Origin: a bacterium
Lineage (GTDB): Bacteria; Patescibacteriota; Patescibacteriia; Veblenbacterales; UBA10138
Length of the DNA: 64,000 nt
NCBI GenBank assembly: GCA_020057885.1
Contig: JAGVEX010000006.1
Coordinates: 23,850-87,849 of the forward strand
Direction of reading: 5' to 3'
Made by a program: the position numbers and the translations under genes. Within the stretch, counting starts at the first letter, position 1, and each line of letters starts with the position of its first letter. This document shows positions 1,357 to 55,805 of the stretch, in pieces. A model generated the notes under the pieces. The model worked only from the letters and a program-made list of their open reading frames with translations, ran no database searches and was not told the DNA's origin.

Positions 1357-3951
1357 ATGTATCTTCAGAAATTAGAAATCCAAGGTTTTAAATCGTTTGC
1401 CAGTAAAACCACTTTAGAATTCAATCGCCAACTAACGGCGGTGGTTGGCCCCAATGGCTCAGGCAAGTCCAACATTGCCGATGCTATACGCTGGGTACTG
1501 GGTGAGCAATCTTTAAAACTTTTGCGTGGTAAGCGAGCGGAGGATGTAATTTTTGCCGGGAGCGATTTAAAGAGCCGTTTGGGCATGGCGGAAGTTTCGC
1601 TTTATTTAAATAATGAAGATGGCCAAGCGCCCATTGATTTTTCTGAAATTGTGGTGACTAGGCGGATATTCCGCGATGGTCAAAGTGAATATTTATTAAA
1701 CCAATCGCCTATTAGATTGCAGGATATTCAATTGCTTTTGGCGCGGGCGCATTTTGGTCAAAAAACTTATAGCGTTATTGGGCAGGGAATGATAGATTCC
1801 ATTCTTTTGGCCAGCCCAGCCGAACGCAAAGAATTTTTTGAAGAGGCCACTGGGGTTAAACAGTATCAAATCAAGCGCGACCAAGCTATTCAAAAACTTA
1901 CTACCACTTACGAAAATTTAGAGCAAGCCGAAGCAGTAGTGCAAGAAATTGAACCACGTTTGCGTGCCTTAACCAGGCAGGTAAAACGTTTGGAGCGTCG
2001 CGAAGAATTAGAGCGAGAGCTTAGGGAGATGCAAAAGCTTTATTTTAGAGCGCGTTTTTTTGAGCTCGAAGGCAGGCGGCAAGAAGTTAAAATTAAGACA
2101 GATGAACACAGCGAACAATTAGTTAAACAAAAAAAAGTTACTCGTGAGCTTGAATCTAAATTAAAAGAATTAGAGGGCGCTGAGCTTGTCTCAAAACATT
2201 GGCATGAGCTGCAAGCCAAACAGACCGAATTGAGAAACAAATTATCACGTTTAGTTAAAGAGCAGGCCGTGGCGCAGGCTGAGGAAGAGGTTGGTCATAT
2301 AAAACGAGGTGAGGGCGAAGTAGCTTGGATTAAACAGCGTTTGGCCGAAATTGAGGTTGAGCAAAAAAATTTGGAGGCACGCGCTAAAGCTATTGCTGGC
2401 GAGTTAACTAACAAGCAAGATTCTTTGCAAAATAAATTGGCTGAGCAAGCTAAGGTAGTGGAAGGTTTTGACCGCTTAACAGGCGAAAGCGGCGATAAAT
2501 GGTTAATAAAGGAAATTAATAGTTTGGCGCAGGAGCAAAGTGAATTTCGTCGCCATTTGGTTCAAATAAAAAATTTAACAGAAGTGCAAAGTATGGCTGA
2601 ACGCGCTTCGACTATTGAAGATAGGCTACGCAGCCTGCTTAAACGTTTGGAGCAAGGGGGAAGGCTTTCCACTGAAGAACTTAATCGGGCTTTGTTAGAG
2701 CGTGATACTTTGGTTAATGAAGTAGCTAGCTTGCAGGCCGGCCTTAAATCATTACAACACGAGCAAATTAATTTAATTGAATCACAAAATCGCCTTAAAG
2801 AAACCAGGGTAAAAATAGAGCATTCACTTAGTGGTACAGCCAAGTCAAACAGTTCGCACTTGCCAGAAATTTCAAAAAATATTATTGAGGCTGAGAAAGA
2901 GCTTAATCAAACAGAGCACGAGCTAAATTCTTTTCAAGCGCAAGCCGAAACTCGCAAAGCGGAATTTTTTAGTATTCAGCGCGAACTTACCGCCACCACT
3001 GGTGCCGAACGCCGATTGGAGCAGGAGACGCACGAAATAACAGTCGAACTTGCTCGCTTAGAAACAAAATTAGAAGATTTAGAGCGCGAAATGGCACAGG
3101 AAGTGCCCTCTGAATTGGTGCACGAAATTAAGACCCCAGGAACCGTTACCGCCATTGATGAAGGTGGTGTGGCGCTGGAGCTCCAAAAACTTAAACACCA
3201 ATTAGAGTTAACTGGTGGTATTGAACCTGAGGTGGTAACAGAGTATCAGCAAACCAAAACACGCTATGATTTTATTAATAACCAGCTGACAGATTTAAAA
3301 ACAGCCATCGGCTCGTTGGAAAGTGTTATTCGAGATTTAGATGAAACTATTCAGAAGAAATTTTTATTGAGTTTTAAAGCAATTAATGAAAAGTTTAGTA
3401 AATATTTCCAGCTTTTATTTAGCGGTGGCAAGGCGCAGTTGGTACTGCAAAAAGAGGAGCCTAAAAAAGAACCGGAAGAAGTTGAGGAGGGGGCGGAGTT
3501 GGCTGAAGACGAAGAAGTGCCTAAACTTGGTATAAAAGATAAGTTTTTGCAACAAGAGCGGCTGAGAGCCTCGCTTTTTTCCGGAGTGGAAATGAGCGCT
3601 ACGCCGCCAGGCAAAAAACTTTCTTCTATTAACGCTCTTTCGGGCGGCGAAAAAGCCCTTACTTCTATTGCGCTTATTTGTTCAATTATTTCTAATAACC
3701 CTTCACCTTTTGTTGCGCTGGATGAAGTTGATGCCGCTTTAGACGAAGCTAACTCCGAACGTTTTGCCGCTATTTTAGATTCATTAATGAGTGAAACGCA
3801 ATTTATTACTATTACCCATAACCGAGCTACTATGAAAAAAGCCGCTATTCTTTATGGTGTAACTATGGGCGAAGATGGCGTTTCTAAACTTTTGTCAGTT
3901 AAATTGGACGAAGCCAAAGAAATGGTGGGTACTTCAAAAAAACGCGTTTAG
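1357..3951 (+). CDS. smc: Chromosome segregation SMC-family ATPase (short, 864 aa)
   Basis: N-terminal Walker A FKSFA..VVGPNGSGKSNIADAIRWVLGEQS; long coiled-coil; C-terminal ABC signature LSGGEKALTSIAL and Walker B ALDEVDAALD. Confidence 0.8.
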   Translation: MYLQKLEIQGFKSFASKTTLEFNRQLTAVVGPNGSGKSNIADAIRWVLGEQSLKLLRGKRAEDVIFAGSDLKSRLGMAEVSLYLNNEDGQAPIDFSEIVVTRRIFRDGQSEYLLNQSPIRLQDIQLLLARAHFGQKTYSVIGQGMIDSILLASPAERKEFFEEATGVKQYQIKRDQAIQKLTTTYENLEQAEAVVQEIEPRLRALTRQVKRLERREELERELREMQKLYFRARFFELEGRRQEVKIKTDEHSEQLVKQKKVTRELESKLKELEGAELVSKHWHELQAKQTELRNKLSRLVKEQAVAQAEEEVGHIKRGEGEVAWIKQRLAEIEVEQKNLEARAKAIAGELTNKQDSLQNKLAEQAKVVEGFDRLTGESGDKWLIKEINSLAQEQSEFRRHLVQIKNLTEVQSMAERASTIEDRLRSLLKRLEQGGRLSTEELNRALLERDTLVNEVASLQAGLKSLQHEQINLIESQNRLKETRVKIEHSLSGTAKSNSSHLPEISKNIIEAEKELNQTEHELNSFQAQAETRKAEFFSIQRELTATTGAERRLEQETHEITVELARLETKLEDLEREMAQEVPSELVHEIKTPGTVTAIDEGGVALELQKLKHQLELTGGIEPEVVTEYQQTKTRYDFINNQLTDLKTAIGSLESVIRDLDETIQKKFLLSFKAINEKFSKYFQLLFSGGKAQLVLQKEEPKKEPEEVEEGAELAEDEEVPKLGIKDKFLQQERLRASLFSGVEMSATPPGKKLSSINALSGGEKALTSIALICSIISNNPSPFVALDEVDAALDEANSERFAAILDSLMSETQFITITHNRATMKKAAILYGVTMGEDGVSKLLSVKLDEAKEMVGTSKKRV

Positions 3952-3974
3952 TTTTTAATAAGGAATAACCGCAT

Positions 3975-4301
3975 ATGGATATAAATAAACTTGAGATTGT
4001 TGTACGCCGTTCGCGAAAATTGTTTGTAATCAGTCTAGTATTGATGTTTTTAACCCTTCTTATCGCAGTAGTAGCGAATTCTATTTCATTGCCACCACCA
4101 GGCAATGAGCCGGCTTCATCTCAGTTCTATCAGATGGTTAGTGGTATTAGTTCCAGTGTAACGATTATACTTTATGTGAGCATTGTTTGTACGGCAGTAT
4201 TTTTCGTTGTTCTTGTTTCTAGTAGTATGATTTTAGGTTCTAGACGTAAGAAGCAACACCCAATGCAACCACCTACACCACCTTCCTCGTCCAATATTTA
4301 G
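3975..4301 (+). CDS. Hypothetical small membrane protein with Pro-rich tail
   Basis: Two hydrophobic segments; no recognisable family; sits between smc and the rpsP promoter. Confidence 0.3.
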   Translation: MDINKLEIVVRRSRKLFVISLVLMFLTLLIAVVANSISLPPPGNEPASSQFYQMVSGISSSVTIILYVSIVCTAVFFVVLVSSSMILGSRRKKQHPMQPPTPPSSSNI

Positions 4302-4314
4302 TTTTAACAATCCC

Positions 4315-4343
4315 TTGACATAAATTTATTTTCGAGTTAATAT
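4315..4343 (+). promoter_or_regulatory. Sigma70-like promoter TTGACA-17-TAATAT upstream of rpsP
   Basis: Exact -35 hexamer and 17-nt spacer read directly from sequence. Confidence 0.4.
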
Positions 4344-4385
4344 CATTTTACGTTTTAATTAGTATTTATTCTATCCAATATTGTT

Positions 4386-4715
4386 ATGTTAGTTATCCGT
4401 TTAGCACGTATCGGTAAAAAGAAACAGGCTTATTTCCGCTTGATTGTATCGGAAAAAACCAAAGATACTCAAGGTGATTATTTGGAATTATTAGGCCAAG
4501 TAAATCCACACACCAATCCCCGCCAAATTACTTTAAAGGCGGATCGGATAAAGTATTGGTTAGAGCACGGAGCCACAGTTTCGCCCTCAGTGCATAATAT
4601 TTTAATTGAGCAAGGTGTATTAAAGGGCGATAAATTACGCGTGTGGAAGGCAAAAAAAGTTGAGAAAACAGAAGTCGCGGCGCAACCTGCCGCACCAGCT
4701 ACGCCAGCCGCTTAA
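4386..4715 (+). CDS. rpsP: 30S ribosomal protein S16
   Basis: MLVIRLARIGKKKQAYFRLIVSEKTKDTQGDYLELLGQVNPHTNP is the canonical S16 N-terminus; Ala/Pro-rich C-terminal extension. Confidence 0.9.
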   Translation: MLVIRLARIGKKKQAYFRLIVSEKTKDTQGDYLELLGQVNPHTNPRQITLKADRIKYWLEHGATVSPSVHNILIEQGVLKGDKLRVWKAKKVEKTEVAAQPAAPATPAA

Positions 4716-4903
4716 TGAATTTTTAGGGGCGCGGTTAGTGTATTAACATTTAACGTTTAACTAACAGGAACAGTTGTAAGTAATTAATTACTTTTGCGGA
4801 CAAAAGGTCGAGCACATTAACATTCTTCGCAAAATCATAAAACTTAAAACTATTTTCCTATTAGAAACGAAATTATCACAGTTAATTATTTATTACCACA
4901 CAC

Positions 4904-5263
4904 ATGAGCGAATCTATACCGAAGGACCAAGAGTTCATTGACTACGTCGTGAAAGCTTTGGTCGATCATTCAGATGATGTAAAAACCGAACGCACGGTTG
5001 ACGAAATGGGAGTACTTATTACTCTACACGTCAATCCGGAAGACATGGGTCAGGTAATTGGCCGCTCTGGTCAAACCGCCCGCAGTTTAAGAACATTACT
5101 ACGCGTCGTTGGTGCGAAGAACAATGCTCGCGTGAACTTGAAGATTTACGAACCAGAAGGAAGCCAAGGCCCTCGTCGCCCACGCTTTGAGCGTGAGTCT
5201 ATGCATGGCACTGGTCCTGTCGGTACTGCCGACACCTCCATGGTAGATGATCTCAAGATATAA
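4904..5263 (+). CDS. KH-domain RNA-binding protein (YlqC/UPF0109-like) with C-terminal extension
   Basis: VKALVDHSDDV...GVLITLHVNPEDMGQVIGRSGQTARSLRTLLRVVG matches the KH fold protein usually encoded after rpsP; C-ending-rich codons atypical for this genome. Confidence 0.7.
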   Translation: MSESIPKDQEFIDYVVKALVDHSDDVKTERTVDEMGVLITLHVNPEDMGQVIGRSGQTARSLRTLLRVVGAKNNARVNLKIYEPEGSQGPRRPRFERESMHGTGPVGTADTSMVDDLKI

Positions 5264-5273
5264 TATCTAAAAT

Positions 5274-5307
5274 TAAAACCACCCCGCCATTCGGCGGGGT
5301 GATTTTG
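5274..5307. terminator. Bidirectional rho-independent terminator hairpin between convergent genes
   Basis: AAAACCACCCCGCC-attc-GGCGGGGTGATTTTG; near-identical hairpin sequence recurs at 16063-16096. Confidence 0.5.
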
Positions 5308-5314
5308 TATTCGT

Positions 5315-6154
5315 TTATTTTTGTAAATGGAAGAATTTGTGGCAGAATTTTTTATATGCTTCTGCTCTAGTTTGATTATGTGAGATGGTAATTCTTACTC
5401 GATGGTTCTGTTTGAGAATGACTGTAAGGCGCGCATTAGCTTCACTATTCCATAGGGCGATCCGTTGATAAAAATTATCAATTGCATTCGACATTTTTTT
5501 ATCGAGCCAGACTTCAATCAACACATTGCCGAATACATTCAGATAATAGTTATTATTTTTAAAGCGTGGCTGTGAAAGTGGGTGATACTGACTGCATTCG
5601 CCGTCAAAGTATTGGCGTACATGTCGGTCGAGTGGAGTATTATGACCAGCGAGTAGTAAAAATTGTTTTCCTCGGGATGTTATTGTTCGAATGACTTCTG
5701 TTTCATTCTCATGTCGTGCCAGCAGAAACCATTCATGAGGATTGTAAAGGTACACCGGTTCTGAAGCAGGAGCGTGTTCAGCGAGCAAATAGAATGCATG
5801 GGTCCAAAATACATCGGCCTTTAACGGGTTTGCAAAATGGTATGTAATGCGGTCGCCAGGGGAAAGGTTAGTAACATCGTCTCCAGCAACTTCACCACCC
5901 GCATAGTTGCGCTTGGCGTTAACAATAAACCGTGTGAGTCGATTAAGCCAGGTGGCGTTTAGGGCCGCGGTACCTTTGTACATCACAACTTCCTCACGAG
6001 ATTTTTGCTGCCTGAGTGCAGAATACACCGCCTGTTTTGTAGTATGGCGCCGTAAATGCTGAATTTCCTCTACTAGCTTAATGGCTAGTAGGGGGCCTTT
6101 TGCTAGTCGCTCAACTATTAAATCCTCAATTTTTCTTGGTTTGAGTAGTGACAT
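5315..6154 (-). CDS. Hypothetical protein with N-terminal winged-helix-like domain and about 200 aa C-terminal domain of unknown family
   Basis: 279-aa ORF, Trp/His-rich, codon usage (CTA, CTC, ACA, CGA, TAC) unlike neighbouring core genes; N-terminal 60 aa resemble a wHTH; no family recognised by eye. Confidence 0.5.
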   Translation of the reverse strand: MSLLKPRKIEDLIVERLAKGPLLAIKLVEEIQHLRRHTTKQAVYSALRQQKSREEVVMYKGTAALNATWLNRLTRFIVNAKRNYAGGEVAGDDVTNLSPGDRITYHFANPLKADVFWTHAFYLLAEHAPASEPVYLYNPHEWFLLARHENETEVIRTITSRGKQFLLLAGHNTPLDRHVRQYFDGECSQYHPLSQPRFKNNNYYLNVFGNVLIEVWLDKKMSNAIDNFYQRIALWNSEANARLTVILKQNHRVRITISHNQTRAEAYKKFCHKFFHLQK

Positions 6155-6292
6155 AGTATAGTATTCCAGTAAAATATTTTTTTACTAATAAACCAATTAT
6201 AGCGTATTTATTGCCATTTGTCCAGCCCCAAAGTAGCCTGCATGGTTAAAACAAAAATAACTATCTTTAAAAAATTAATAAAGGAGAATACA

Positions 6293-7090
6293 GTGAAAAG
6301 ACTCATAATTATTAATGGCGTCACAGGCGCCTTGGGCAGCGCCTGCCTTGCTCTCTGCAGTCGCAATCCAGAAAATACAATTTATGGATGGAGTCGTAAA
6401 GGATTGCCCTATATGGATTTCCTAGTGTCAGGAATTATGCCCGATGTAACTTTAATTTGTTCCGTAGGCAAAGAAGATTTGAAAGGTTATCACATGCTCT
6501 TGGATAGAATTAATTTCTCGTTGTATGAGAAAGTAATCTATATCCATGCCCTAGGAGTATATCCCTTTGAAATTAGTCCAGAAGGAACAATTACGGTTAC
6601 TGACGACCACGATAAGGATGGTATCAATGACCTTGTCACTAAACTGTCCCACGACTTTTTCTTGAGCGTGCTGAATAAGCTTATTAAGAAAAGTGCCAGG
6701 GTGCAGGCTTTGATTTTCGGTGGACTGGTTGATAAGCATGAGCCGTTAGTTCATCAATCATGGTGGAAAACCATGAAGAAAATTAAGGCGCGATGTATTG
6801 AGGTTGTGTCTAAAAACAAAAAAGTTAGCGTTATGGTGCTTAATATCAGTAGTGTTATTTGTCCTAATGAGCTGATCACTCGGCCATTCGTCTTTAGGGA
6901 TACCGACGCTAAGTCTTGTTTTTGGCTAATGCCGCACGAGGTCGCGGAAGAGGTAGATCGTCTGACCACTGGTGACTCTCAAGGTTTTTACGAGTGCGAG
7001 TTATTTCATCCATCAGGGTACTATCGACCAGGGTACTATGCGGATGAAAATTTCACTGTGCGAAAAAAACGGGAGCTGGGTATTCTATAG
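6293..7090 (+). CDS. Hypothetical Rossmann-like (SDR-like) protein
   Basis: GTG start 6 nt after AAGGAG; N-terminal KRLIIINGVTGALGSACLAL resembles a dinucleotide-binding glycine motif; atypical codon usage; the ORF track extends upstream to 6218. Confidence 0.5.
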   Translation: MKRLIIINGVTGALGSACLALCSRNPENTIYGWSRKGLPYMDFLVSGIMPDVTLICSVGKEDLKGYHMLLDRINFSLYEKVIYIHALGVYPFEISPEGTITVTDDHDKDGINDLVTKLSHDFFLSVLNKLIKKSARVQALIFGGLVDKHEPLVHQSWWKTMKKIKARCIEVVSKNKKVSVMVLNISSVICPNELITRPFVFRDTDAKSCFWLMPHEVAEEVDRLTTGDSQGFYECELFHPSGYYRPGYYADENFTVRKKRELGIL

Positions 7091-7275
7091 GAAAAATCCA
7101 AACAAAGTGTGCTGAAAAATAGTAGCGCCTCTGGTTAGGTGGGTTGCTTCCCGCCTGAAACTGAAAACTGTCGTGAGATAGTCAATAAGCAAAAAATAAA
7201 AGTCAGTCGCTATAATCGTAACTGACTTTTTTATTATTGAAAAAATTACTACTATGTGTTAACGTATTAATGTTT

Positions 7276-7974
7276 ATGAAACATTTTGATATTATTTCCA
7301 TTTTTCCAAATTCGCTTGATTCGTACTTTAGTACGAGTATTTTAAAGCGCGCGCAAGAAAAGAAACTTATTAAAATTCAAACACATGATTTGCGGAAATA
7401 TTCCACTGATAAGCACCACAAAGTTGACGACCGTGTGTATGGCGGTGGGGCGGGAATGGTGATGAAAGTTGAACCTATCGTTCGTGCGTTGCACGAAATC
7501 AAATTTAAAAATCCCTGCCTTGCCGGCAGGCAGGAAAAATCAAAAATTAAAATTAAAGAACGAATTATTTTACTTGCGGCGAATGGGAAGCAATTTACCC
7601 AAAAAGACGCCAAGCGGCTAGCCAAGTATGAACGTTTAATTTTTATCTGCGGTCGGTACGAAGGCGTGGATGCACGCGTGGAAAAATTTATTGATGAAAA
7701 AATTTCAATAGGTAATTATGTCGTAACCGGCGGTGAACTTCCAGCGGCAATTATTATTGATGCCGTGTCACGCATGATCCCTGGCGTGGTAGGCAAAGAA
7801 GAGTCGGTGCAGAACGAATCTTTTTCTGAAGGAGTTAATTTGGAGCATCCGCAGTATACTCGCCCTGAGGTTTTTGTGGCAGGTAAAAAAAAGCTAATAG
7901 TCCCCAAAGTTTTACTAGGTGGAAATCACAGGAATATAGCCGTCTGGCGAGCAAAGAAATCAAAAGGTAAATAA
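7276..7974 (+). CDS. trmD: tRNA (guanine37-N1)-methyltransferase
   Basis: MKHFDIISIFP...VDDRVYGGGAGMVMKVEPI...LLAANGKQF...IFICGRYEGVDARV...GNYVVTGGELPAAIIIDAVSR: TrmD motifs; the ORF track starts at an upstream TTG, and ATG 7276 is more likely. Confidence 0.85.
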   Translation: MKHFDIISIFPNSLDSYFSTSILKRAQEKKLIKIQTHDLRKYSTDKHHKVDDRVYGGGAGMVMKVEPIVRALHEIKFKNPCLAGRQEKSKIKIKERIILLAANGKQFTQKDAKRLAKYERLIFICGRYEGVDARVEKFIDEKISIGNYVVTGGELPAAIIIDAVSRMIPGVVGKEESVQNESFSEGVNLEHPQYTRPEVFVAGKKKLIVPKVLLGGNHRNIAVWRAKKSKGK

Positions 7975-8023: not shown

Positions 8024-8524
8024 TTAATTTTTATGAAATCCGATGTGTTCCAAAAGTTGATATAATCTTTCGAGCCGATCATCTTTCTCACCCCTAAAAA
8101 CCCTTTGTAACGTCAATTGACCTCGTGCTAACACTTCAAAATTTATGGGTTTGATATTATTTTTTTGATTTTGACTTACTTTTGATAGATAAAGAGTAGC
8201 TTCTTCTACATACCAGCGAGTTACACCAGAGACATTTTCTTTGTATAGTTTGGCTTTTATTAATAATGAGGGGGAAAGAGCCTTGCCATAACCAAACCTG
8301 GTGGTTTTTATTATAACCGTGCGGTATGTGTAGTCTAATGTAGAATTATCATCCTCCTCTATATTGGGTAGAGTATAAAAATCAATTTCTCCTTCGTGAT
8401 TTGGCCAACATAAATTTGGAAGTTTATTTTCATTGAATTTATGTATAGCTAAATCTATTGAAGTTACAGTTTGAATAACAGCAACTGTAAAACTGTGTAT
8501 TTCTACTTTTTTATTTTTAGGCAT
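8024..8524 (-). CDS. Hypothetical protein
   Basis: ORF with plausible start MPKNKK after AGGGA; no recognisable family; lies between trmD and the rRNA promoter where rplS would be expected. Confidence 0.4.
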   Translation of the reverse strand: MPKNKKVEIHSFTVAVIQTVTSIDLAIHKFNENKLPNLCWPNHEGEIDFYTLPNIEEDDNSTLDYTYRTVIIKTTRFGYGKALSPSLLIKAKLYKENVSGVTRWYVEEATLYLSKVSQNQKNNIKPINFEVLARGQLTLQRVFRGEKDDRLERLYQLLEHIGFHKN

Positions 8525-8739
8525 AAACTTATCCCTGTTCCGCAAGCATCGCGCTTGCAATGTTGGTTTGACATCGCCGCCCTCACGGTGGCTATTTAGT
8601 TTTTTAGGTACTACTTTTGATTTTATATTAACTTAGTCCAAACTATAGTTTTTGTCAACAGAATGAGTGGTTGTTTGGAGGCAAAAAACCTCTAAAAAAG
8701 CGAAGATTTAAGCATGTTGTTAAGTTGTGGGTTAACCTC

Positions 8740-9090: not shown

Positions 9091-10596
<1,506 letters not shown>

Positions 10597-10934: not shown

Positions 10935-11011
10935 GGGTGTGTAGCTCAGCTGGTTAGAGCACTTCACTGATAATGAAGAGGCCGATGGTTCGAGTCCATC
11001 CACACCCACCA
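10935..11011 (+). tRNA. tRNA-Ile (anticodon GAT) including encoded CCA
   Basis: GGGTGTGTAGCTCAGCTGGTTAGAGCACTTCACTGATAATGAAGAGGCCGATGGTTCGAGTCCATCCACACCCACCA folds as a cloverleaf; 7-bp acceptor stem GGGTGTG/CACACCC; anticodon loop CTGATAA. Confidence 0.9.
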
Positions 11012-11390: not shown

Positions 11391-12956
11391 ATGATAACCG
11401 ATCAATTGCGGGATTATGTTAAACAGCAACTTGCTTTGGGTGTTACCAAGGATGATGTTAAAGCCAGACTTGTGGCTCGCGGCTGGGTTCAAAATGATAT
11501 TGAAGCTGTTTTAGCTCCCTCTGTTCAAGGTACGGCCCCATCTCAACCTAGTGTACAATCACAACCATTATCACCGTTTCAAGCTTTAGCACAACAACCA
11601 AATCCCGAAGCTAATACACAGCCAACTGTGTCTACTCAGCAGGTTTCACCGCTTAAGCCAGTTTCGACTCCTACTGTTATGCCACAAGTTTCTTTGCAGG
11701 CGGCTATGAGCGCTTCGCCTACTTTTGCACAAAATTCTAAGTCTAGTAAAAAAATATGGCTAGCAGCTGGTTTGGCAGTGGTGGTTTTATTATTAGCCGG
11801 TGGAGCGTGGGCTTATTATACTTATTATTTGCAGGCACCAGAAAGAGTTTTAGTAAAAATGCTCGATAAATTAGCCGAGGTGAAGTCGAGCGAATATTCA
11901 GGTGAAATAAAAATTGAAACAGATTTTAGTAAATATAATTCTTATTCGCTTTTACCTTCCAATAATAAAGATAATCAGGCTCAAACTGGAAAATTAACAA
12001 TTAAGTTTAATGGTATTTCAGAAACGCAAGTACAGGATTTAAATGATTTAAAAATGGCTGCCTCAATTACAGCTGTTCCAGAAAATATGGCCGAGCTTAA
12101 TAGTAATTTAGGTATTGAACTTAGGATGTTGGGTAAAATTATGTTTATTAAATTAACCGAAGTTCCTAACTTAGGGTTAGTTGATTTGAGTACCATTAAA
12201 GATCAGTGGATAAGATTTGATTTTGATGCTATGGCCAAACAATTTGGTGCGGCAGAAAAAGTTCAAGAGTTTGAAACACAACAGAAAGCAGTTTTAGATA
12301 AATTTTCCCAGTTGCGCCAAGCCGTTATAACTTCTGGTTTATTTAAGGTAGCCGAAAAACTATCAGGGGAGACAATCGATGGCGTTTCTACCTATCATTA
12401 TAAAATTATTTTAGATAAAGATGGTTTGCAAAATTTCTTCACCCAAGTTAATAAAATTATTAATGAATCCGAACTTACCACAGATCAACAAACTGAGCTT
12501 GAGACTAATTTAAGCAAGTTAGCGAGCTTACCGGCAGGAGAAATTTGGATTGGTAAAAAGGATTATTTACCCCGTAAAATTTATTTTGAAAATACTACGC
12601 CAGCCGATGAATCAACTTCTTCCACCAAAATCACCGTTACTTATTTTATGTCCAAATTTAATGAGCCAGTGCAGGTTGATATTCCAGAACAATCAAAATC
12701 AATTGAGGAGCTTGTTGCTGGTATAATGGGTGATTTAAATACGGAGTCCAATATTCCTACACCAGATTTAAACAAAGATTCAGATAATGACGGTTTGTCA
12801 GATTATCTGGAAAGTTATTATGGCACTAATCCTAACAATCCAGATACAGATGGTGATGGCTACAAAGATGGCGATGAAGTTAAAAATGGATATAATCCTA
12901 ATGGTTCGGGTAAGGAAATTTTACCGCCACCCCAGCCCGCTACTCTTCCTGAATGA
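11391..12956 (+). CDS. Hypothetical membrane-anchored surface protein with C-terminal Asp-rich calcium-binding-like repeats
   Basis: Pro/Gln-rich N-terminus, one TM helix (IWLAAGLAVVVLLLAGGAWAYY), C-terminal DSDNDGLSDY..NPDTDGDGYKDGDE (thrombospondin-type-3-like DxDxDG). Confidence 0.6.
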   Translation: MITDQLRDYVKQQLALGVTKDDVKARLVARGWVQNDIEAVLAPSVQGTAPSQPSVQSQPLSPFQALAQQPNPEANTQPTVSTQQVSPLKPVSTPTVMPQVSLQAAMSASPTFAQNSKSSKKIWLAAGLAVVVLLLAGGAWAYYTYYLQAPERVLVKMLDKLAEVKSSEYSGEIKIETDFSKYNSYSLLPSNNKDNQAQTGKLTIKFNGISETQVQDLNDLKMAASITAVPENMAELNSNLGIELRMLGKIMFIKLTEVPNLGLVDLSTIKDQWIRFDFDAMAKQFGAAEKVQEFETQQKAVLDKFSQLRQAVITSGLFKVAEKLSGETIDGVSTYHYKIILDKDGLQNFFTQVNKIINESELTTDQQTELETNLSKLASLPAGEIWIGKKDYLPRKIYFENTTPADESTSSTKITVTYFMSKFNEPVQVDIPEQSKSIEELVAGIMGDLNTESNIPTPDLNKDSDNDGLSDYLESYYGTNPNNPDTDGDGYKDGDEVKNGYNPNGSGKEILPPPQPATLPE

Positions 12957-53990: not shown

Positions 53991-55805
53991 CTATTTATTA
54001 AACAAAGAGTCAATTTCTTTATCGCTCATATGTTTAATTTTGTCCCTTATTGTTTGGACATTTTTTGTGGCTTGTGTCTCTGATGTTCTGATTTCCACTC
54101 TAGATTTAAGCTCACCTTGAGCAGTGGATTTGCTCAATACGATATTTTTATTATCGAATTGAACTACTGGTATAACATCTTCCGGAGTATCGACATATTT
54201 CAGAAAAATGGCGTCACCAGATTTTGTAATAGGTAATTTAGGCGAAAGACCCGCTCCGCATATGAATATATGTGCAAGTGCATTATTGTAAATGTAGTAA
54301 TTACCTTCACGTGGTTCGTATGAAATACGATCTGCAGTTATGGTAATAGTTACTTCATTATGTTTGAACTCCGGGGCAATTTGTTGACCACTGGCTTGTA
54401 ACTGCTTTTGGTAGTCGCGATATGCCTCAAGTTCGTTTTTACCTTCTGCTACAAGCATGTTATTTACATCACAAATGGCGACTTCTTGGAATGTATGATT
54501 CTCACCAAGAACTGGTACGATATATGCCATTGTGCCATATATGTTGTAAAGTACTGGAGAGGATCCGTGCCATTTTTTATAAGACACTTTATTATTTACA
54601 GCAGTTAGTACACCTGTTTCAGTACTTCCTTGCGAACGGTAGTAGAATGTCTCTCCCGTACGGCTATCGATATAGTATAACCCGACCATTGAGTTCTCCA
54701 CACCGTTCGTCGAAGTGATTGCCATGACCCAGTAGGGTTGATGGTCAGCACCGTAGACCAAAGTAGCAGATTCGGGTTGCGTAACATTTTTCTGTGCGAA
54801 TATACTATTCCAGAATCCGCCGGACAACGATCCATGTTGAGTCACGTAGTCTTTGGCAAAACTGGCTGGTACGCAGCGATCAATCCATTTGGGTATGGAT
54901 CCTAAAGCGTGGAAGGTGATTTCACCGGAAGTTGGATTAACAACAGCTACACCGATGGCTTTTTCGCCCCACCAAGAAATTGTTGGTTCGTACACACTGA
55001 CAACCCACCAGGGATTCAGATCTTCGTCCAGCTCGAGCGAAATATCAGTTAGTCCTTTGGACATGTATCCGTTGTACCACAGATGCCGCATCAGATTTTT
55101 GTCGAAGTACGCACCAGGCGTGTACATGAATTTTTTGTCTGATACTACTTTGACCGGGGCATACGGATCGCAGCCATGAACCATGACATATCCTGGAGCA
55201 ACATCGGCGTTCCACCATTTGAAAATATCAATGAAGTCGAGTGGCGCTACATACCACAATTCACCGTGGATGACTTGAAGTGCCATACAATCTTCATCAA
55301 CTTTGAATTGGCTACCTATCACTCCGCCTTGAGCTGACCCGAGTTGTTTATCAGCCAGGAAATTAGCGGCTTCGTTTGAGACCAGTCTAATGTTCTTTGG
55401 GTCTTTGGGTTGGACGTCCTGCGTCCATTGTCGTTCTTGGAATTGACCAATCAAATTAGCATAGTCGTTGGAACGTAGTAATGTGCAGCCGCTGCAACCA
55501 GAGACGAAGAGACTAAATATTCCGATTACTGGAAGCGCCCAAGTTAGCACCATATTGGCATCAGATGATCTATACCCGATAGGAACTGTGCCGGCAATTG
55601 CAGATATAATCGTCCAGACTATTGTGAAGATTGTAACCAGACCACCGAGTGGCCAGACCAACGAGGGTACTATGCAGTAGAAAAGCAGCCACGAGAGGAG
55701 GAAGTACACTGCAGCCAGAATAGCTGCGACGGTCCATCTTTTTGAAAATAGGACCGGTACCGTTCCTATTGCTGCCGATAACAGCGCAAACAAGAAGAAT
55801 AACAT
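53991..55805 (-). CDS. Hypothetical membrane-anchored protein (3 N-terminal TM helices plus about 480-aa Trp/Tyr-rich extracytoplasmic domain)
   Basis: 604-aa ORF; codon usage (TTC, CTC, GTC, TAC, ACA, ATA rich) clearly different from flanking rpoC and ftsK; no family recognised. Confidence 0.55.
   Translation of the reverse strand: MLFFLFALLSAAIGTVPVLFSKRWTVAAILAAVYFLLSWLLFYCIVPSLVWPLGGLVTIFTIVWTIISAIAGTVPIGYRSSDANMVLTWALPVIGIFSLFVSGCSGCTLLRSNDYANLIGQFQERQWTQDVQPKDPKNIRLVSNEAANFLADKQLGSAQGGVIGSQFKVDEDCMALQVIHGELWYVAPLDFIDIFKWWNADVAPGYVMVHGCDPYAPVKVVSDKKFMYTPGAYFDKNLMRHLWYNGYMSKGLTDISLELDEDLNPWWVVSVYEPTISWWGEKAIGVAVVNPTSGEITFHALGSIPKWIDRCVPASFAKDYVTQHGSLSGGFWNSIFAQKNVTQPESATLVYGADHQPYWVMAITSTNGVENSMVGLYYIDSRTGETFYYRSQGSTETGVLTAVNNKVSYKKWHGSSPVLYNIYGTMAYIVPVLGENHTFQEVAICDVNNMLVAEGKNELEAYRDYQKQLQASGQQIAPEFKHNEVTITITADRISYEPREGNYYIYNNALAHIFICGAGLSPKLPITKSGDAIFLKYVDTPEDVIPVVQFDNKNIVLSKSTAQGELKSRVEIRTSETQATKNVQTIRDKIKHMSDKEIDSLFNK

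Follow-up and report, generated by a model that had tools for sequence, protein, structure and literature searches.

Introduction

The canonical trmD operon has the order rpsP-rimM-trmD-rplS in Escherichia coli and rpsP-KH-rimM-trmD-rplS in many other bacteria. This study concerns the corresponding region of a Patescibacteria (candidate phyla radiation, CPR) genome, contained in a 64-kb stretch of DNA that is referred to here as the window, to whose positions all unlabelled coordinates belong. The window retains the order rpsP, KH, trmD and, like related loci and CPR genomes generally, lacks rimM and rplS. In contrast to the canonical operon, the cluster is interrupted by a cassette and two terminators, and trmD is followed by an unassigned open reading frame (ORF) and the 16S rRNA gene. 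The cassette (5308–7245) is probably an accessory islet inserted at the KH–trmD junction, with the islet or its alleles having been exchanged among related lineages well after their divergence, and still recombining.

The closest described systems are small flexible genomic islets that occupy conserved chromosomal positions, together with the within-phylum horizontal gene transfer of Patescibacteria (mSystems 2025, PMC12455944), organisms reported to possess genes for competence and recombination and to trade genes mostly with one another (PMC12455944). The insert resembles these islets in that accessory genes lie between core genes, show presence/absence polymorphism and use atypical codons. 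It further shares with them a history discordant with that of the flanks, exchange within the phylum and a transcriptional regulator among the cargo. In contrast to those islets it is only 1.9 kb long, has no integrase, tRNA or repeats, and splits a translation-gene cluster, rpsP-KH-trmD. The evidence also differs in kind, being synonymous-site discordance and a mosaic among lineages about 90% identical in 16S rRNA rather than the output of an island-prediction program. The islet is a fresh example of an already known phenomenon, and offers a clean case, at the sequence level, of genes moving between ultra-small (CPR) bacteria whose divergence is deep. It does so without mobility genes, which is consistent with uptake and recombination of DNA being a main source of novelty in these reduced genomes.

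Results and Discussion

The insertion site

The initial annotation of this region placed two divergent ORFs of the insert (5315–6154, minus strand, and 6293–7090, plus strand; here ORF-A and ORF-B) between KH and trmD. Its coordinates and gene order (rpsP, KH, the two ORFs, trmD, an unassigned ORF and 16S) were all confirmed, and the separation of rpsP from KH that it remarked upon corresponds to a spacer of 188 nt. Comparisons were made with related Patescibacteria-type loci, which carry L numbers. General gene order was taken from the trmD loci recovered by a metagenome scan with TrmD (n = 80 among the matches listed; best match 57% identical), a set without the closest relatives of the window that was used solely for this purpose. 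When the locus is aligned with its relatives, the two genes occur at this site only in the window, in L006 (a JGI contig of 8.1 kb) and in L009 (a 9.9-kb contig of a metagenome-assembled genome). Among the matches listed, 22 related loci have an empty site, with the order (rnc-SMC-)rpsP-KH-trmD, KH directly upstream of trmD, KH–trmD gaps of mostly −19 to 171 bp, and no rimM. KH and trmD are also adjacent in L086, which has its own copy of ORF-A 5.5 kb away.

Queries with E. coli RimM and L19 find no match in the 64-kb window, in agreement with the local absence of rimM and rplS noted earlier; the same L19 query does recover a Patescibacteria L19 in L078. The association of this absence with the insert did not hold. 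Among the matches listed, rplS is missing from 16 of 16 related KH–trmD loci with enough downstream sequence, and more distant loci have the canonical rpsP-KH-rimM-trmD-rplS, with rimM in 17 loci and rplS in 12 of 13. RimM has been reported missing in most CPR genomes (PMC6744442, PMC12641178). Because related loci without the insert and the CPR literature show the same absence, it characterises the lineage (CPR/Patescibacteria) as a whole and has nothing to do with the insert. The locus is unusual solely in the 1.9 kb that lie between KH and trmD. This corrects a tempting misreading, in which the missing rimM and rplS are taken for damage done by the insert and not for a property of the lineage.

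Borders, synonymous divergence and mosaic structure

The islet stands out as a block of DNA identity to L006 and L009. Identity within the block is 80–85%, locally 93–98%, and outside both ends it is 40–65%. In a sliding comparison, the left border lies at ~5308, just 3′ of the KH terminator, where identity jumps from ~65% to 82–97%; at the right border, identity drops from 87–93% to ~40% past ~7245. A hairpin is found at each border. On the left, a strong bidirectional intrinsic terminator (5275–5306; 14-bp stem with a T-run on either strand) lies between the convergent KH and ORF-A genes, as previously proposed, and its hairpin sequence differs in all three genomes. On the right, a hairpin and T-run (7203–7235, plus strand) are kept in L006 and L009 and, from sequence and fold, form the intrinsic terminator of the transcript of ORF-B and the RNA element described below. 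The two hairpins delimit the insert as first suggested, but the left limit of 4720 was too far left, the insert running from ~5308 to ~7245. KH, which had been counted in part as belonging to the island, has synonymous sites as diverged as those of trmD and belongs to the resident left flank.

Synonymous divergence is discordant between the islet and its flanks. The 16S genes of the window and L006 are 90.7% identical. Compared with the window, rnc, SMC, rpsP, KH and trmD have third-position identities of 0.40–0.51, proportions of synonymous differences (pS) of 0.67–0.78, and synonymous substitution rates (dS) of 1.65 or more, often undefined. Among these genes, rpsP is saturated (third-position identity to L009, 0.41), KH has third-position identities to L006 and L009 of 0.44–0.51, and trmD has dS values against the same two genomes of 2.7–3.3. 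For ORF-A and ORF-B, the third-position identity is 0.60–0.76, pS is 0.34–0.58 and dS is 0.45–1.13. Synonymous sites are saturated or close to it in the flanking genes, and unsaturated in the two insert genes. In L009, both insert genes have decayed to pseudogenes (nonsense changes at Arg and Trp codons, frameshifts and a deletion of 72 bp) between intact flanks. These degenerate copies rank among those least diverged from the window at synonymous positions (dS 0.45–0.50), which speaks against constraint as an explanation of the low dS. Measured against L006, the insert genes are under purifying selection, with ratios of nonsynonymous to synonymous divergence (dN/dS) of 0.09–0.14, the value for ORF-A being 0.09.

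The interior of the insert is a recombination mosaic. A runs test on 427 informative sites gave 200 runs against 278 ± 9.6 expected (z = −8.2), and the minimum number of runs in 5000 permutations was 242. Positions 5308–5607 group L006 with L009 (54 sites, versus 3 and 18 for the other two groupings), 5608–5907 and 6358–6957 group the window with L009, and the right end favours the window with L006. Such blockwise switches of topology are impossible by vertical descent, which makes it unlikely that the cassette entered the KH–trmD junction once in an ancestor and was inherited vertically thereafter, its low synonymous divergence reflecting nucleotide constraint or a locally low mutation rate. 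The identical position and borders in all three genomes, the absence of mobility genes and the strong purifying selection on ORF-A would agree with that history. However, synonymous constraint over 1.9 kb that includes the two L009 pseudogenes is implausible, and the insert genes favour rare, not preferred, codons. A copy of ORF-A outside this site, in L172, is 81% identical with a dS of ~2, and adjoins a PRC-barrel gene and an ORF that, read from its sequence, is putatively YidC-like, rather than KH.

Several observations weigh against the proposed exchange of an accessory islet. GC content at the insert is 0.40–0.45, compared with a window mean of 0.40 (range 0.32–0.51), and the tetranucleotide distance has z < 1 over most of the insert, reaching 2.35 only for 4751–5750, a value comparable with that of the SMC gene. 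No integrase or transposase is present in or next to the insert, and its borders show neither flanking direct or inverted repeats nor target duplications, apart from short matches of the kind expected by chance. There is no tRNA at the insert, the nearest being at 10935. The carriers are three genomes only, two of which are short metagenomic contigs, and the comparisons rest on short flanks (five genes). If the insert was ancestral to the three lineages, the low dS calls for later exchange of alleles and not for first acquisition. Finally, membership of the ORF-A product in the TrmB family was considered and rejected, hhalign giving a probability below 1% against two PF01978-positive proteins of the same loci; a TrmB-like architecture is therefore claimed for it, and not membership.

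Bulk composition was assessed from GC and strand-symmetric tetranucleotide distance in 1-kb windows. As it gave no foreign signal over most of the insert, a per-gene synonymous-codon likelihood was used instead (51 genes), and bulk composition was weighed neither way on transfer. By this measure ORF-A (z = −5.8) and ORF-B (z = −5.9) are the second and third most atypical of the 51 genes, and KH has z = −3.05. ORF-A is enriched in CTA (8/31), CGA (7/21) and ACA (7/15), for which the window values are 8.6%, 9.5% and 24.7%. The claim that the inserted genes, and to a lesser degree KH, use C-ending, CTA, ACA and CGA codons is thus upheld. The description of the region as compositionally foreign applies to its codon usage but not to its GC or tetranucleotides; k-mers are ordinary, but codons are atypical, and the gene order is not conserved in related loci.

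It is highly improbable that KH-ORF-A-ORF-B-trmD is simply an ordinary clade-specific order, with nothing inserted and a compositional signal that amounts to noise. The order is present in three assemblies, GC and tetranucleotides fall within the range of the window, and the loss of rimM and rplS is indeed typical of the lineage, all of which would suit this explanation. It is contradicted by the empty site in 22 related loci (among the matches listed), the discordant dS, the sharp borders, codon z values near −6, the presence of the ORF-A/ORF-B pair in many other neighbourhoods and the blockwise mosaic.

Insertion of an accessory islet, with exchange among related lineages, is in line with the suggestion in the initial annotation of acquired cargo in the rpsP-KH-trmD cluster, which is borne out by the empty site, discordant divergence, sharp borders and mosaic. 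Since no recombinase, repeats, tRNA or viral carrier was found, and given the competence and recombination genes of Patescibacteria (PMC12455944), uptake with homologous recombination is the most economical route. The most likely course would be DNA uptake followed by homologous recombination between copies of the islet, and crossovers restricted to the islet, as the one stretch of DNA similar enough, would explain the sharp borders. Carriage by viruses was also considered, but neither the two protein profiles nor the RNA pattern gave a match in IMG/VR.

Consequences for trmD expression

Where the site is empty, the short distance between KH and trmD allows their co-transcription. In the window, they are separated by two terminators, one of them bidirectional, and by a convergent gene. 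As the two terminators cut trmD off from the rpsP-KH transcript, trmD must be served by a promoter of its own or by read-through of the cassette. The insert thereby isolates the gene for an essential tRNA methyltransferase from the transcript usually found upstream, and raises the question of how trmD is expressed. A trmD promoter would lie in the 37–46 bp past the islet; otherwise, expression would rely on read-through of the cassette terminator. A consensus scan found no plus-strand promoter for trmD after the islet. Of the trmD promoter and terminator annotated at 7205–7235, the hairpin and T-run (7203–7235) stand, as the terminator of the insert's own RNA, and the promoter is not supported, none being predicted on the plus strand. 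From alignment, the true start of trmD is probably ATG 7282, not TTG 7237.

The inserted proteins

ORF-A (279 aa) is a predicted DNA-binding regulator. The protein comprises an N-terminal winged helix, a long helix and a C-terminal phospholipase D (PLD)-like domain, and is TrmB-like by fold only. The PLD-like domain is without the HKD catalytic motif, HxK(x)4D. The counterpart of this motif is an invariant H140-E-W-F-L-L-A-R147, in which the His is kept and the Lys and Asp are replaced. ORF-A has no Pfam match at E ≤ 0.1, and hence none to PF01978 or PF11495, and no match in NCBIfam or PADLOC. Profile searches with ORF-A and ORF-B against PDB sequences returned noise only. ORF-A therefore shares the architecture of the TrmB family (PF01978 helix-turn-helix and PF11495 C-terminal domains; structures 3qph, 2f5t and 5bpd) with no sequence-level similarity. 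TrmB regulators are sugar-sensing. The ORF-A family appears restricted to Patescibacteria-type contigs. The non-catalytic PLD-like domain may serve as a sensor, presumably of a ligand.

ORF-A and ORF-B diverge from a shared control region (6155–6292) that is 80–93% identical across the three genomes. A consensus scan places a promoter-like site for ORF-A, TGGACA-17-TATAAT, at 6224 to 6196 on the minus strand, and one for ORF-B, GTGACA-16-TAAAAT, at 6148–6175. A palindrome, AGTAAAA-N5-TTTTACT (6168–6186), overlaps the −10 of the ORF-B site. The window contains a single copy of it, compared with an expectation of 0.09, and it is conserved in 10 of 16 ORF-A/ORF-B intergenic regions of distant Patescibacteria, in which ORF-A is only about 45–50% identical to that of the window. 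The palindrome is a candidate operator, and from its position and conservation ORF-A is predicted to bind it. As a dimeric winged-helix regulator acting at the back-to-back promoters that the palindrome overlaps, ORF-A would control both itself and the divergent gene.

ORF-B (265 aa) starts at GTG 6293, with AAGGAG upstream, and its N-terminus matches 46 homologs. It has an atypical short-chain dehydrogenase/reductase (SDR) fold of Rossmann type, with the glycine-rich nucleotide-binding motif TGAxGSA. The Ser-Tyr-Lys triad is lacking (there is no YxxxK), and the strand-5/helix-5 region has no invariant Tyr or Lys, its invariant residues being D147, P151, H154 and S156. An invariant acidic loop, DxDxDG(I/V)(D/N)D, is inserted after strand 4 at residues ~90–113. 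This loop resembles the calcium-binding DxDxDG motif. ORF-B differs from classical SDRs (PF00106/PF13561) in having no Pfam match, no catalytic triad and the inserted acidic loop; NCBIfam and PADLOC give no match either. The protein may be an NAD(P)-binding enzyme or sensor of SDR fold with a non-canonical active site. The initial annotation proposed Pfam and defence-system searches for the two proteins; no function emerged from Pfam, and PADLOC identified no known defence system for ORF-A, ORF-B or the ORF at 8024–8560.

Homologs of ORF-A (74) and ORF-B (124) were found only in contigs that are labelled, or look like, Patescibacteria. The cargo, which had been thought foreign, originates inside Patescibacteria. 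Homologs of ORF-A are present in 80 GTDB species loci, with a divergent gene of the ORF-B family in 28 of the 74 that have upstream sequence; other neighbours are unrelated from locus to locus. With 1722 representatives at E ≤ 1e-3, ORF-A belongs to a large family of uncharacterised regulators for which an operator is predicted. In L170, two adjacent 277-aa regulator-like genes (5977–6810 and 6951–7784) lie beside an ORF-B homolog. One belongs to the ORF-A family, and the other scores 25.8 bits against the PF01978 threshold of 25.6 and is not detectably related to ORF-A by hhalign.

The structured RNA element

The 155 nt from ORF-B to the border are conserved as strongly as the genes, and their minimum free energy has z = −5.4 compared with shuffles. 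This segment contains a conserved structured RNA element (7087–7190, plus strand) that begins at the stop codon of ORF-B. Three hairpins separate the conserved single-stranded blocks GGAAAAAYCCAAAYAAAG, CYCUGGUUAGG and CCUGAAACUGAA. Among eight sequences, compensatory changes occur in 14 of 24 pairs, in an alignment that was fitted to the model (an independent RNAalifold analysis of six sequences gave 9/24), and 89% of cells are paired compared with 33–45% in slid controls; none of 500 shuffles reaches the observed values. Rfam gives no match for 7087–7190 at E ≤ 10 except terminator look-alikes, and this covariation-supported motif is the most novel piece of the locus.

Homologs of the motif were found in L006 (5535–5638, minus), L009 (2063–2158, minus), L169 (4277–4390, minus), L084 (3274–3381, plus), L022 (4985–5093, minus), L015 (30–136, minus), L071 (15151–15245, minus) and L035 (3430–3579, minus), the matches in L015, L071 and L035 being weaker. 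The motif begins 0–17 nt past the stop codon of the preceding gene, and usually has a TrmB-like regulator gene, in divergent orientation, within about 1–2 kb. In L169 it adjoins a 60%-identical ORF-A but follows two different small genes, and in L084 and L022 it follows a pyridoxal phosphate (PLP)-enzyme gene divergent from a bona fide TrmB regulator (PF01978, 55 bits). A small Cys-rich protein of 80–93 aa is encoded immediately before the motif in L035 (3592–3831, minus) and L071 (15253–15534, minus), and the two share the motifs KYxRNQE and C.C..C...R...K.RL..KH. Two other explanations of the element were rejected. A role as trmD leader conflicts with its absence from the 80 other trmD loci (among the matches listed), and this absence indicates that the RNA belongs to the cassette and not to trmD. 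Read-through coding past the ORF-B stop was suggested by GAAAAAYCCAAACAAAG, in frame after TAG in several loci, and is countered by an early in-frame stop in L084 and by the compensatory variation of the hairpins.

In L035, a canonical type III hammerhead (RF00008; 3455–3510, minus; 46 bits, E = 2.7e-9) directly follows the conserved 5′ half of the motif, between the small Cys-rich ORF and an ORF-B homolog. A type III hammerhead-like match of 37.8 bits is also present in L039 (954–1008, plus); both are just below the Rfam gathering score. The hammerhead core, CUGANGA...GAAA, is missing from the RNA of the window and is confined to the L035 variant. In its location between genes of a single transcription unit, the element resembles many self-cleaving ribozymes.

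The precise, identical borders of the islet, each at a hairpin, also invite comparison with a site-specific mobile element, in which the hairpin module at 7087–7235 would serve, as integron attC sites and IS200/IS605-type ends do, as the target of a recombinase supplied in trans. The 3′ element follows four kinds of gene across genomes (ORF-B, the PLP enzyme, two unassigned ORFs and the small Cys-rich ORF), GTTAGGT in the window fits the attC core GTTRRRY, and compensatory changes are equally expected of a structure acting as single-stranded DNA. Yet L084, L022 and L071 have not retained a GTTRRRY-like core, the element is present as a single copy in the 64-kb window with no cassette array, and no matching element is found at the left border. 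Neither the islet nor its immediate surroundings encode a tyrosine recombinase or a transposase, and the fusion to a hammerhead ribozyme in L035 points to a role at the RNA level; such an element is improbable.

Within the exchanged islet, candidate roles for the RNA are a processed 3′ end, an attenuator before the next gene, and a ribozyme. It is conceivable, though unlikely, that the regulator, divergent cargo and three-hairpin RNA constitute a modular regulatory cassette exchanged horizontally among Patescibacteria, in which the RNA would be a new functional class, a self-cleaving ribozyme or a ligand- or protein-responsive attenuator, that here gates read-through into the essential trmD. 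This reading of the RNA as modular and of a new class derives from its occurrence after several unrelated cargo genes and its replacement or extension by a hammerhead in one relative.

Flanking genes and other features of the window

The KH–trmD junction behaves as a hotspot for insertions. In L006 (locus coordinates 2487–5376), the stretch from the islet to trmD carries a HATPase_c_2/DUF4325 gene, a 73-bp duplicate of the 5′ end of trmD, and an NTase/HEPN-like pair matching the PADLOC candidates PDC-M05A/B. The same space in L009 (1305–2009) holds only a remnant, a truncated ORF of DUF4325 type.

To the left of the insert, rnc (3–668) and the SMC gene (1357–3951) are followed by a small membrane ORF and then by rpsP (4386–4715, plus strand; ribosomal protein S16, PF00886, E = 3.3e-15), a resident flanking gene outside the insert. 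The spacer between rpsP and KH contains a conserved motif of ~29 nt, GGTCGAGCACATTAACATTCTTCGC (4803–4831, plus strand), also in the resident flank. It is the sole conserved block in a spacer that is otherwise unalignable among the window, L006 and L009, and nhmmer matches to it are limited to these three. The motif may be a promoter or leader element for KH, a gene of KhpA type (khpA; 4904–5263, plus strand; PF13083, E = 2.7e-21).

On the right, the resident flank begins with trmD (7282–7974, plus strand; tRNA m1G37 methyltransferase, PF01746, E = 6e-52). The ORF that separates trmD from the 16S gene (8024–8560, minus strand; 178 aa) has a low third-position GC content (GC3, 0.26) and no match in Pfam, NCBIfam or PADLOC; L006 carries a different ORF, of 117 aa, at this position. 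After the 16S rRNA gene (9092–10594) come, in this order, tRNA-Ile and a protein gene (11391–12956) that contains bacterial TSP3 repeats. Neither 23S nor 5S rRNA was detected within the 64-kb window, and the rRNA genes are therefore not linked. L006, L095, L097 and L150 likewise have 16S after trmD.

The most atypical of the 51 genes lies elsewhere in the window. This ORF of 604 aa (53991–55805, minus strand) has no Pfam or NCBIfam match, a codon z of −13 and a tetranucleotide z of ~5 for 54251–55750, and has a stronger claim to being foreign DNA than the region that was originally flagged.

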